DNA of 32,000 bases from Flavobacteriaceae bacterium. Its GTDB lineage: Bacteria; Bacteroidota; Bacteroidia; Flavobacteriales; Flavobacteriaceae. Of this stretch, positions 9,699-19,260 are shown in pieces. Under the pieces are notes generated by a model that did not search any database, was not told the origin of the DNA, and worked only from the letters and a program-made list of their open reading frames with translations. A program made the position numbers and the translations under genes. Where the stretch lies: NCBI GenBank assembly GCA_965224465.1, contig OZ245049.1, positions 2,280,001 to 2,312,000 of the forward strand, read 5' to 3'. Position 1 is the stretch's first letter. The number at the start of each line of letters is the position of its first letter.

Positions 9699-9870
9699 TT
9701 TTCGACATTCGTGAAATAGTTAAAAAAGAAAACGACGAACTGAATTAACAGTCGCCGTTTCAACTATTTTAGCTCACCCTCTTTTCTATTTTCCTTTTCG
9801 GTGTTCGTGAAACATTTAAAAAAGAAAACGACGAACTGAATTAACAGTCGCCGTTTTAAATGTTTTCACA
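9699..9870. repeat. Tandem duplication (period 96 bp) of a long-hairpin module. The cas9-proximal copy is the tracrRNA 3' end.
   Basis: The core AAAAAAGAAAACGACGAACTGAATTAACAGTCGCCGTTT is identical at 9722-9760 and 9818-9856. The flanking arms differ (GTGAAATAGTT/AACTATTT versus GTGAAACATTT/AAATGTTT) but stay complementary within each copy. Confidence 0.85.
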
Positions 9871-9910
9871 ACGGAATAATCCTTATTGTGAATTGATTTC
9901 AAAATTGTAC
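9818..9910 (-). ncRNA. Predicted tracrRNA, transcribed divergently from cas9
   Basis: Minus strand 9909->9886 is UACAAUUUUGAAAUCAAUUCACAA, a perfect complement of repeat positions 2-25 in the GUUGUG sense, with a G.U opposite position 1. It is followed by UAAGGAUUAUUCCGUUGUGAAAAC (nexus-like), the hairpin CGGCGACUG-UUAAUU-CAGUUCGUCG, and the tract UUUUCUUUUUU. The exact 5' and 3' ends are estimates. Confidence 0.7.
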
Positions 9911-9911
9911 T

Positions 9912-9919
9912 CAAATATA
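9912..9919 (-). promoter_or_regulatory. Candidate -7 box (TATATTTG) for the tracrRNA
   Basis: A perfect TAnnTTTG on the minus strand directly upstream of the anti-repeat. I saw no clear -33 TTG. It predicts a TSS at roughly 9903-9908. Confidence 0.4.
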
Positions 9920-9954
9920 TGAAATAAATTCCGAATAAAGAGTTAGTGCGCCGT

Positions 9955-9962
9955 TATTTTTG
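9955..9962 (+). promoter_or_regulatory. Candidate -7 box (TATTTTTG) for cas9
   Basis: A perfect TAnnTTTG 34 nt upstream of the cas9 ATG. I saw no clear -33 element. Confidence 0.4.
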
Positions 9963-9995
9963 TAAATTAGTTGCTCAATACGCTAAAACTTTATT

Positions 9996-15617: not shown

Positions 15618-15959
15618 ATGATAACAACTAACCGATTTAATGCATACCGAATTATGTGGACACTCGTATTTTTTGACTTACCAACAGAAACCAAAAAAGA
15701 GCGCAAGGCAGCTCAATTATTTCGAAAAAAATTATTAAAAGATGGTTTCACCATGTTTCAATTTTCAATTTATTTGCGACATTCTCCGAGCCGAGAAAAC
15801 GCTAAAGTTCATGTAAAAAGAACAAAAATGAATTTGCCACAATCCGGGAAAGTCGGTATTTTAGAAATCACAGACAAACAATTTGGAAATATGGAACTGT
15901 TTTTTGGAAAAAAGGAAATAGACAAACCAAATACTAGCCAACAACTAGAACTATTTTAG
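15618..15959 (+). CDS. cas2: CRISPR-associated endoribonuclease Cas2
   Basis: 113-aa ORF starting 1 nt after the cas1 stop codon. [35 protein letters not shown] is typical of type II Cas2. Confidence 0.93.
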
Positions 15960-16028
15960 GACTAAAAAAATAAGTATTGTAAAATAGTGTTCTTCTTAAA
16001 CCTTACTGTTTTACAAATCCTAAAAATA

Positions 16029-16065
16029 AATCCCAAAGCCTTAGTATGACTAAGAATTTGGGATT
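16029..16065. terminator. Long hairpin between cas2 and the first repeat
   Basis: AATCCCAAA (16029-16037) pairs with TTTGGGATT (16057-16065), and an inner stem pairs CTTAG (16040-16044) with CTAAG (16050-16054). It could terminate the cas operon (+) and/or array transcription (-). Confidence 0.5.
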
Positions 16066-16068
16066 GAC

Positions 16069-19000
16069 CCTGTGATTGCTCACGTAAAAATACAATTTTG
16101 AAATCAATTCACAACTGTCCTCTCGATGATGCAGATGCATTATGTCCTGTGATTGCTCACGTAAAAATACAATTTTGAAATCAATTCACAACACGATGCA
16201 ATTAATTTGTCGTATGCTAGACCCTGTGATTGCTCACGTAAAAATACAATTTTGAAATCAATTCACAACAAATTGGACTGGTGATTTTGACGTTAAAACC
16301 CTGTGATTGCTCACGTAAAAATACAATTTTGAAATCAATTCACAACTAATCTCCTTGATAGTTTAACACTTCGTTTCCTGTGATTGCTCACGTAAAAATA
16401 CAATTTTGAAATCAATTCACAACGCCATTTTATCTAATTCTTAAAATTTTAAACCTGTGATTGCTCACGTAAAAATACAATTTTGAAATCAATTCACAAC
16501 TGTATTTAGAAACACGCCCATAGCAATCAACCTGTGATTGCTCACGTAAAAATACAATTTTGAAATCAATTCACAACTGAGGCTGATAGCCTTCTGTTCT
16601 TCAATTACCTGTGATTGCTCACGTAAAAATACAATTTTGAAATCAATTCACAACAATTGCTTGTAGTTAGCATCTACTCCTCCTCCTGTGATTGCTCACG
16701 TAAAAATACAATTTTGAAATCAATTCACAACATTCTACTAACCAGTTCATCATATAATCCCCCTGTGATTGCTCACGTAAAAATACAATTTTGAAATCAA
16801 TTCACAACAGTATCTAACAATAGTATTTTACCTCTAACCCTGTGATTGCTCACGTAAAAATACAATTTTGAAATCAATTCACAACGATTACATGTGTTAT
16901 GAAAAATAGTACATGCCTGTGATTGCTCACGTAAAAATACAATTTTGAAATCAATTCACAACTTAAAATATCATTATTCAATGTTGATATTTCCTGTGAT
17001 TGCTCACGTAAAAATACAATTTTGAAATCAATTCACAACTAAACTTCAGTGAATACTTCGCAGGTAAGGAACCTGTGATTGCTCACGTAAAAATACAATT
17101 TTGAAATCAATTCACAACAATAGATACTGTTTGTCAATTAAATATTATCCTGTGATTGCTCACGTAAAAATACAATTTTGAAATCAATTCACAACCAATA
17201 TGTCAGTATCAATATGTCAGTATCACCTGTGATTGCTCACGTAAAAATACAATTTTGAAATCAATTCACAACTAAAAGCCATAACTATTACATTTCAATA
17301 TCCCTGTGATTGCTCACGTAAAAATACAATTTTGAAATCAATTCACAACTGTTGTAATAACGAATAAGTAGTTGTATATCCTGTGATTGCTCACGTAAAA
17401 ATACAATTTTGAAATCAATTCACAACTATAAGTCGCCCTGATAGTTCTAAGATATGCCTGTGATTGCTCACGTAAAAATACAATTTTGAAATCAATTCAC
17501 AACAAGATCAGCGATCGCTTTTTCATGAGTCTCCCTGTGATTGCTCACGTAAAAATACAATTTTGAAATCAATTCACAACCATTTCAATTACTTCAAAAA
17601 CTATTTTTCCTGTGATTGCTCACGTAAAAATACAATTTTGAAATCAATTCACAACTTGGTGCGGCTGACGTGATTCAATAGCATCGCCTGTGATTGCTCA
17701 CGTAAAAATACAATTTTGAAATCAATTCACAACGACACAATGCATCTTTTGGTAACCTGTGATTGCTCACGTAAAAATACAATTTTGAAATCAATTCACA
17801 ACTAACGGCTTAAATGAATTTCTGTAAATCGCCTGTGATTGCTCACGTAAAAATACAATTTTGAAATCAATTCACAACGAAGGCTAATACATTTATTGAC
17901 AAGTAATTACCTGTGATTGCTCACGTAAAAATACAATTTTGAAATCAATTCACAACAAGTTTGTAGTTCCATATATTGAAGCATCTCCTGTGATTGCTCA
18001 CGTAAAAATACAATTTTGAAATCAATTCACAACTGAGGCTTACTAACCAGTTCTGAACTTCTATTTCCTGTGATTGCTCACGTAAAAATACAATTTTGAA
18101 ATCAATTCACAACAGTATCTCTTACTAAGAGTATTTTACCTTTTAACCCTGTGATTGCTCACGTAAAAATACAATTTTGAAATCAATTCACAACTATCCA
18201 TTGCGAAAATATCGTACATCATAACCCTGTGATTGCTCACGTAAAAATACAATTTTGAAATCAATTCACAACTTGATTTCGCTATTGGGTTTCTATCGGG
18301 ATCCTGTGATTGCTCACGTAAAAATACAATTTTGAAATCAATTCACAACTAAATTGTGAGAACTAATAAGTGTTGTACATCCTGTGATTGCTCACGTAAA
18401 AATACAATTTTGAAATCAATTCACAACCTATTTCTTTTATTAAACATTTGGAAATTTCCTGTGATTGCTCACGTAAAAATACAATTTTGAAATCAATTCA
18501 CAACTTACCCTCGTCAACTTCTGGATTTACAGCCTGTGATTGCTCACGTAAAAATACAATTTTGAAATCAATTCACAACATTCTGCGATGGTCTGTTTAA
18601 GAGCTATGTCCTGTGATTGCTCACGTAAAAATACAATTTTGAAATCAATTCACAACAACTAACAATCGAATCCTTAAGCGTTCCTACCTGTGATTGCTCA
18701 CGTAAAAATACAATTTTGAAATCAATTCACAACTTATAGCTTCACTTGCCTTTGATTTTTTAACCTGTGATTGCTCACGTAAAAATACAATTTTGAAATC
18801 AATTCACAACAGAGTATAAATCGGTCATTAAAAGACATATCCTGTGATTGCTCACGTAAAAATACAATTTTGAAATCAATTCACAACATGATACCAATTA
18901 TCAAATACAACTTGATGCCTGTGATTGCTCACGTAAAAATACAATTTTGAAATCAATTCACAACGCTTAGCAGGTTTCGTTCTATTGAGTAAGACCTGTG

Positions 19001-19118
19001 ATTGCTCACGTAAAAATACAATTTTGAAATCAATTCACAACAACAAACATTTGCACTTACTCCTTTAGTCCCCTGTGATTGCTCACGTAAAAATACAATT
19101 TTGAAATCAATTCACAAC
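16069..19118 (-). CRISPR. CRISPR array: 40 x 47-nt repeats, 39 spacers (22-34 nt, mode 30)
   Basis: The + strand repeat is CCTGTGATTGCTCACGTAAAAATACAATTTTGAAATCAATTCACAAC. In the inferred crRNA sense (minus) it is GTTGTGAATTGATTTCAAAATTGTATTTTTACGTGAGCAATCACAGG. I noticed no repeat variant on reading, and repeat plus spacer lengths sum exactly to 3050 bp. The strand call rests on the GTTGT 5' end and on the tracrRNA anti-repeat strand; that orientation has about 0.7 confidence. Confidence 0.97.
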
Positions 19119-19260
19119 GCGTATCTGTACCAGTAATCGACCGTATTATTTTGAAAAGAAATGATAGTTAAAAAAAGAATTAAAAGATATAGGGGGAATT
19201 AAAAAAAATAGCATTTAAAAATACCCAAAGAGTTACTTTTACTGCTTTTTATAAAAAAGA

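Follow-up and report, generated by a model that had tools for sequence, protein, structure and literature searches.

Type II-C CRISPR arrays are transcribed antisense to the cas operon in Neisseria meningitidis and Campylobacter jejuni (PMC3737331). In II-C arrays, promoters embedded in the repeats drive transcription toward the leader, and the repeat that is transcribed last is where spacers enter (PMC8092290, PMC12080349). Repeats of up to 48 nucleotides (nt) were noted in 2013 as a mark of the Bacteroidetes Cas9 subcluster (PMC3737331). We analysed a stretch of 32,000 nt from a Flavobacteriaceae bacterium (contig OZ245049.1, positions 2,280,001 to 2,312,000; hereafter the window), which carries a cas9-cas1-cas2 operon followed by an array of 47-nt repeats. 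Judged from sequence, the operon and array very probably form an intact and apparently functional CRISPR-Cas9 locus of subtype II-C, located in a Flavobacteriaceae chromosome and belonging to the long-repeat lineage of Bacteroidota. A reading of the array on the minus strand, toward cas2, is well supported by the predicted guide RNAs and the array flanks. We also propose, with about even confidence, that long Bacteroidota repeats have some 11 extra nt because each must hold a complete bipartite sigma-A promoter in addition to the 25-nt segment that pairs with the trans-activating CRISPR RNA (tracrRNA). Each spacer would in that case be transcribed as a separate unit from a start about 12 nt ahead of it, which would provide the CRISPR RNA (crRNA) with a repeat-derived 5' leader that Neisseria-type crRNAs lack.

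Among the described systems, Fp2Cas9 from Flavobacterium psychrophilum CN46 (1548 amino acids, aa) mediates plasmid interference in vivo and DNA cleavage in vitro (PMC10309648, PMC12609912). Its guides comprise a crRNA ending in GUUGUGAAUUGCUUUCAAAAUUGUA and a tracrRNA containing UACAAUUUUGAAGCAAUUCACAAUAAGGAUUAUUCCGUUGUGAAAACAUUUAAAGCGGCC (PMC12609912 supplement). Its protospacer-adjacent motif (PAM) is 5'-SNAAAG-3', and its single-guide RNA (sgRNA) works in zebrafish (PMC10309648, PMC12609912). The window likewise encodes a large Flavobacterial Cas9 in a cas9-cas1-cas2 operon and a tracrRNA with the identical core UAAGGAUUAUUCCGUUGUGAAAACAUUU, a GC hairpin and a U-run; with this identical 28-mer on the minus strand, the window tracrRNA belongs to the Fp2Cas9-type family. 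The repeat-derived part of the Fp2Cas9 crRNA is 1 nt off that of the window and has the same repeat sense, and the Fp2Cas9 authors likewise proposed repeat-encoded transcription. The two systems differ in the length of Cas9, 1584 aa in the window, and the Fp2Cas9 PAM is not transferable to the window Cas9. The Fp2 locus is broken by insertion sequence elements, whereas the window locus is intact with 39 spacers.

The closest solved structure is that of Chryseobacterium CbCas9 (PDB 8iyq; further entries 8wmh, 8wmm, 8wmn and 8wr4), which matches the window Cas9 with 1383 bits in three blocks over residues 2-1576, with the same domain order. CbCas9 has 1442 aa, and the window Cas9 has extra segments at about 667-692 and 1244-1310, outside the aligned blocks; these segments are not flagged as low-occupancy among 119 listed homologues. 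CbCas9 loci encode the PIN protein PcrIIC1 (Zhang et al., Nature 2024, as described in PMC13153721 and PMC12669027), whereas the window has no PIN-domain gene.

Two other systems share the 47-nt repeat. Riemerella anatipestifer CRISPR1 combines such repeats with cas9-cas1-cas2 and a 107-bp palindrome-bearing leader beside cas2, where new spacers enter (PMC5006608). For the 47-nt array of Bacteroides fragilis 638R, eight stranded metatranscriptomes showed transcription face to face with the cas genes (PMC4911918). Both R. anatipestifer CRISPR1 and the B. fragilis system (BfragL47-II) resemble the window in their repeats starting with GTTG, their operon and an array downstream of cas2. In R. anatipestifer the resemblance extends to a palindrome-bearing leader (about 107 bp) and to the anti-repeat located upstream of cas9, and in B. 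fragilis to transcription of the array toward the cas genes, which is predicted in the window. Both belong to other genera and have other repeat 3' halves, and many B. fragilis loci have two extra open reading frames (ORFs) inside the cas operon, none of which is present in the window.

The N. meningitidis locus and that of C. jejuni share with the window a minimal operon, an array whose reading direction opposes that of the cas genes, a per-repeat promoter and acquisition at the transcriptionally downstream end, the last two being predicted in the window. They differ in having 36-nt repeats with a sigma-70 extended -10 element at the 3' end and a Cas9 of 984-1082 aa. Their repeat promoter places the transcription start site (TSS) inside the spacer, whereas in the 47-nt repeat of the window a bipartite Bacteroidota sigma-A promoter is predicted to start transcription about 12 nt before it.

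Gene content and the Cas9 protein

The operon consists of cas9, cas1 and cas2 alone, on the plus strand, which is the gene content of subtype II-C. The locus had been described as minimal, and indeed neither csn2 nor cas4 was found in the window, nor was a PIN-domain or other accessory gene, by ORF calling with Pfam and NCBIfam searches. No further candidate ORF was found between positions 9551 and 19550, and no credible small ORFs in the intergenic regions. In NCBIfam, Cas9 matches TIGR01865 with 370 bits (cut-off 100), Cas1 matches TIGR03639 (cas1_NMENI) with 293 bits (cut-off 120) and Cas2 matches TIGR01573; Cas1 and Cas2 were also found by Pfam. Cas9 and Cas1 thus appear to group with II-C / NMENI-type proteins.

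Cas9 displays the split RuvC motifs I-III, the HNH insert and the arginine-rich bridge helix of a type II effector. Pfam recognises the bridge helix (Cas9-BH, Table 1), HNH (HNH_4, residues 883-937) and RuvC_III (988-1194). The catalytic residues are all intact: D8 in RuvC-I, E776 in RuvC-II, H903 in HNH and H1106/H1107/D1110 in RuvC-III (HHALD1110). Mapping of these residues confirmed E776 and D1110 as originally named, and the length of 1584 aa also stands. The C-terminal WED/PI region, put earlier at about 470 aa, is nearer 390 aa because RuvC-III reaches approximately residue 1194.

Cas9 had been considered oversized. This size is typical of its clade: among the 120 homologues listed, each of them at least 56% identical, lengths range from 1461 to 1603 aa with a median of 1544 aa. 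Among the matches listed, the nearest relatives come from a Flavobacteriaceae metagenome-assembled genome (79% identity) and Sediminicola luteus (65%). Lineage-specific insertions were rejected as an account of the 1584 aa, as only about 25 residues, in four short segments, fall in stretches absent from more than half of the 119 listed homologues. Next after CbCas9 in the PDB come Cas9 chains with 1055-1154 aa, which is the size of compact II-C enzymes; we take several of these chains to be NmeCas9 entries.

With repeats of 47 nt and a Cas9 of 1584 aa, the locus falls within the Bacteroidota long-repeat II-C subcluster (Chylinski 2013/2014), in which repeats measure about 46-48 nt and Cas9 is far longer than 1300 aa, at 1450-1600 aa. 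Related loci have repeats of 46-49 nt, and the Cas9 homologues among the matches listed come from Flavobacteriaceae, Bacteroidales and related groups. The locus is therefore typical rather than unusual, of a long-repeat, large-Cas9 kind that is common in Flavobacteria and Bacteroides. It probably does not belong to the PcrIIC1-associated (Pro-CRISPR) group, in which PcrIIC1 is bound by a C-terminal helix of Cas9, as the window holds no PIN-domain or unassigned ORF.

The original prediction is right in its annotation and polarity, and its suggestion of novel biology is unsupported. Transcription of the array antisense to the cas genes is the established II-C norm (PMC3737331, PMC8092290, PMC12080349) and was observed directly in the 47-nt array of B. 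fragilis (PMC4911918), and the 47-nt repeats, also remarked on, are of the long kind that has been linked to the Bacteroidota Cas9 subcluster since 2013 (PMC3737331). The guide RNA and PAM of the lineage had been called poorly characterised; CbCas9 is solved, and Fp2Cas9 has a tracrRNA with the same core, a defined PAM and a working sgRNA. Biochemically characterised homologues with the same repeat and tracrRNA architecture were said at the time to remove the novelty though not the annotation, and the Fp2Cas9 guide pair, with the same core and architecture and one repeat base off, therefore removes it. What the window adds is a further intact member of a Cas9 lineage that is widespread and already characterised, and a clean reference example with 40 perfect repeats, a complete tracrRNA and an intact operon.

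Guide RNAs and polarity of the array

The plus strand at 9886-9909 equals repeat positions 2-25 in the GTTGTG sense, perfectly over 24 nt, and the RNA that pairs with the repeat must therefore come from the minus strand. On this strand, the anti-repeat is followed by TAAGGATTATTCCGTTGTGAAAACATTT, then by a GC-rich hairpin and a T-run. When repeat positions 1-25 are fused to the tracrRNA in the manner of an sgRNA, the predicted fold (z-score -9.9) comprises a duplex of 25 bp, a short GGA/UCC hairpin and the terminator. The anti-repeat, structured hairpins and terminator expected of a type II guide RNA are thus all predicted in silico.

The same layout was observed directly upstream of cas9 in ten loci, window included. 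The invariant 28-nt core lies between an anti-repeat of 22-24 nt and the terminator hairpin, and was found exact in at least 120 contigs (loci L020-L139) from metagenomes of marine, gut, compost and soil origin, across which the anti-repeat and terminator vary freely. Pooling of all loci gave 119 unique tracrRNA variants, on which the following counts of boxes and hairpins are based. An exact sigma-A -7 box, TAnnTTTG, precedes the tracrRNA in 81 variants (68%), against 4.8% of background windows, and most often ends 26 nt before the core. A hairpin followed by TTTT is found in 117 of the 119, at a median of 26 nt after the core, and the mean minimum free energy of the hairpin is -11.6 kcal/mol vs -4.1 for shuffled sequences. 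Cognate repeat:anti-repeat duplexes have a mean energy of -27.4 kcal/mol, compared with -18.6 for non-cognate pairs, and the two partners show compensatory changes across loci (GATTTC/GAAATC, GCTTTC/GAAAGC, GGTTTC/GAAACC and TCCTTTC/GAAAGGA). RNAalifold did not recover the terminator from 29 tracrRNA tails because hairpin lengths are too different to align, and per-sequence folding was used instead. No Rfam family was found for the tracrRNA or the repeats, the gathering search returning only tRNA-Gln and the E-value search only chance matches.

The array itself comprises exactly 40 identical repeats, the number and identity given by the original prediction, and 39 unique spacers, 28 of which are 30 nt long (range 22-34). 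The GTTGTG (GUUGUG) sense of all repeats is on the minus strand. In the leader, which separates cas2 from the array, a hairpin is accompanied by a T-run in the minus sense only, and its stem covaries among the window and loci L002, L004 and L008 (CCCAAA/TTTGGG, GCCAAA/TTTGGC and CCCGAA/TTCGGG). The leader is probably both the site of new-spacer insertion and the terminator of array transcripts. Degenerate repeats occur at the cas2-distal end in 5 of 8 relatives, as expected if new spacers enter beside cas2. The window array has no degenerate terminal repeat, as had been noted: local alignments of the repeat to either flank score no better than shuffled controls.

The minus-strand polarity claimed for the crRNAs is hence backed by the strand of the tracrRNA, the sense of the repeat motif, the leader hairpin with its T-run, and the cas2-distal degenerate repeats of relatives. 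The agreement claimed between the tracrRNA strand and this polarity also holds, with anti-repeat, promoter box, core and terminator all on the minus strand.

A promoter predicted within the repeat

Each repeat harbors TTG at positions 2-4 and, 19 nt on, TATTTTTA at positions 24-31, which matches the sigma-A -7 box TAnnTTTG at 7 of 8 positions. The -7 box of F. psychrophilum sigma-A lies at -12 to -5 (PMC9723704), and the predicted TSS therefore falls at about repeat position 36, 12 nt before the spacer. Within the family, 30 unique repeats of 46-49 nt were compared. Exact TAnnTTTG is present in 17 of them and TAnnTTTn in 9 more, and among these 26 motif-bearing repeats the motif starts at position 23 or 24 in 23, and TTG lies 18-19 nt upstream of the box in 23. 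The motif is absent from the opposite strand (0/30), and the approximately 10 nt downstream of the box are almost unconstrained. A spacing of 18-19 nt is near the -33/-7 optimum known from mutagenesis of the F. johnsoniae ompA promoter. No publication linking TAnnTTTG to these repeats or stating this geometry was found in the literature searched, which did not include the CbCas9 Nature paper.

In the proposed mechanism, each repeat would act as a Bacteroidota sigma-A promoter through its TTG and box at 19-nt spacing, with transcription from about position 36 toward cas2. Each transcript would begin with 12 nt derived from the repeat as a leader and continue through a single spacer into the following repeat, whose 5' 23-25 nt would pair with the tracrRNA. 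The duplex would load into Cas9, and RNase III cutting and 5' trimming may come next. The leader hairpin and its T-run would halt transcripts from the newest repeat short of cas2, and new spacers would enter at the cas2-proximal end. Cas9 is predicted to cleave spacer-matching DNA with a PAM 3' of the protospacer. At the other end of the array, the tRNA-Gln terminator would block read-through into the first, spacer-less repeat; shielding against a spacer-less crRNA is among the published ways of II-C loci (PMC12080349).

Several points weigh against this proposal. The box in the window repeat is only a 7/8 match, with A for the final G, and in Bacteroidota the -33 element carries little information (PMC7366714). 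Because the family repeats share ancestry, recurrence of the motif across them does not equal 30 independent observations, and conservation of the mid-repeat motif could reflect a role in spacer integration instead of transcription. In the F. psychrophilum work, the repeat promoter element was assigned to a TTG located 35 bp ahead of each spacer rather than to positions 2-4, and some bidirectional array transcription occurs in B. fragilis (PMC4911918). No protospacer, which would allow a check of orientation from the PAM side, was matched in the searches given below. The TSS positions, RNase III dependence and mature RNA ends are predictions.

If the repeats were not promoters, the same polarity would result from one long pre-crRNA, started from a promoter within the flank distal to cas2 (19119-19260) and processed by RNase III in the type II-A manner, with the mid-repeat motif serving Cas1-Cas2 integration or repeat-length measurement. 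The imperfect box and the shared ancestry of family repeats would suit this explanation, the flank is AT-rich and could hold a promoter, and internal repeat sequences are reported to guide integration in type II-A (PMC6895254). We regard it as unlikely, since the motif is restricted to one strand, is kept at a fixed distance from TTG and is followed by an unconstrained stretch, and since the same box precedes 68% of tracrRNA genes. Repeat-embedded promoters are moreover the II-C rule (PMC8092290, PMC12080349), and the distal flank has a strong terminator upstream of it.

If the locus were a variant II-C system, its additional component would be an accessory protein of the PcrIIC1 (Pro-CRISPR) type or another small RNA with a regulatory function, made from the duplicated tail of the tracrRNA. 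CbCas9, the closest solved homologue, works with the PIN-domain protein PcrIIC1 (PMC13153721, PMC12669027), and the palindromic tracrRNA-terminator module is present twice, at 9806-9873, where it forms the tracrRNA 3' end, and at 9708-9778, 96 nt beyond the first. Two or three tandem modules about 100 nt apart recur in loci L002, L027 and L054, and the module is also found in L041. We consider an extra component very improbable: there is no PIN-domain or unassigned ORF in or beside the locus, and the second module, which lacks an anti-repeat, a nexus hairpin and a preceding -7 box, resembles a bidirectional terminator serving as back-up. The 25-nt hairpin is the same within a locus and different between loci, the flanking arms of the two modules show compensatory differences (AACATTT/AAATGTT vs AATAGTT/AACTATT), and the junction motif GTGAGCTAAAA is kept across loci. 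Most simply, the copies can be read as bidirectional terminators in tandem that unequal exchange has kept homogeneous, and such modules might have a regulatory role. A peptide encoded by the second copy was also considered and rejected, as the mini-ORF is not conserved between the two copies.

Plus-strand crRNAs transcribed from the leader in the direction of the cas operon, as assumed for R. anatipestifer CRISPR1, where the 107-bp cas2-proximal region was treated as a promoter-bearing leader (PMC5006608), and as CRISPRDirection predicted for B. fragilis, with some bidirectional reads (PMC4911918), are hardly credible and already largely refuted: they need a plus-strand tracrRNA that would run into cas9 without a terminator and pair with the repeat 3' end, unlike any known type II system, whereas the minus-strand tracrRNA has promoter box, conserved core and terminator, Fp2Cas9 is active with a GUUGUG-sense crRNA, the metatranscriptomes contradict the plus-strand prediction for the B. 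fragilis relative (PMC4911918), and the leader T-run follows its hairpin in the minus sense only.

The comparative data make two lineage-wide predictions testable: crRNAs would have their primary 5' end near repeat position 36, driven by the Bacteroidota-type promoter inside the repeat, and the tracrRNA would measure about 90 nt. If borne out, this would account for the 11 nt by which these repeats exceed those of other type II systems, and would supply correct guide designs for large Flavobacterial Cas9 orthologs.

Feature coordinates, spacers and neighboring genes

Table 1. Positions of the CRISPR-Cas features in the window
Feature	Position	Strand	Details
Second tandem copy of the palindromic tracrRNA-terminator module	9708..9778	-	25-nt hairpin 9733-9757, identical to that of the first copy
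tracrRNA gene (predicted)	9818..9909	-	about 90 nt; upstream of cas9 and divergent from it; anti-repeat, core, hairpin, T-run
tracrRNA T-run	9818..9828	-	
tracrRNA terminator hairpin	9829..9853	-	
tracrRNA core	9858..9885	-	28 nt
tracrRNA anti-repeat	9886..9909	-	
Predicted tracrRNA -7 box	9912..9919	-	TATATTTG; exact TAnnTTTG; predicted TSS about 9906-9908
Predicted cas9 operon -7 box	9955..9962	+	TATTTTTG; 34 nt upstream of the ATG; read from sequence
cas9	9996..14750	+	1584 aa; bridge helix 60-95; ORF call with Pfam/NCBIfam
cas1, type II / NMENI class	14726..15616	+	25-nt overlap with the end of cas9; TIGR03639
cas2	15618..15959	+	TIGR01573
Leader, cas2-proximal flank	15960..16068	-	109 nt; hairpin 16029-16065; T-run 16020-16028 after it in crRNA sense
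CRISPR array, 40 repeats and 39 spacers	16069..19118	- (crRNA sense)	repeat in crRNA sense GTTGTGAATTGATTTCAAAATTGTATTTTTACGTGAGCAATCACAGG
tRNA-Gln intrinsic terminator	19260..19291	-	141 nt upstream of the array in crRNA sense; tRNA-Gln at 19302-19373

Spacers 20-32 are irregular in length (22-34 nt), and spacers 1-19 and 33-39 are 30 nt long except for spacer 13, which has 32 nt. Three pairs of spacers (10 and 27, 17 and 30, 7 and 26) are diverged homologues, with collinear order, the same ends and different lengths. These pairs could stem from repeated sampling of one site in variant phages or from an old internal duplication. A BLAST search of the whole array against 50,697 phage records (INPHARED) gave no protospacers, and none were found in INPHARED for the arrays of relatives L004, L002 and L019. 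Exact-pattern scans of IMG/VR with spacers 1, 2 and 3 and with the shared core of spacers 10 and 27 returned zero matches, and blastn-short of all spacers against the window and 139 loci gave only chance matches of 15-16 nt.

The remaining ORFs of at least 80 aa that do not overlap a larger gene are ordinary chromosomal or housekeeping genes, or restriction-modification (R-M) genes. They include infB, nusA, rimP, a universal stress protein, a flavodoxin and a BlaI/BlaR-like pair, as well as a TMEM260-like transferase, a polysaccharide deacetylase, a thioredoxin, a phosphoesterase, polA and a type II R-M pair. The latter is located at 28611-31993, adjoining polA and about 9.5 kb from the CRISPR array, and comprises a C5 cytosine DNA methylase, with an N-terminal match to an Arm-DNA-binding domain, followed by an endonuclease of the MvaI/BcnI family. 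Two adjacent intergenic tandem-repeat blocks were also observed at 23667-24258, between the thioredoxin and metallophosphoesterase genes, with 3 copies of 111 nt (98% identical) and 5 copies of 51 nt (93%).

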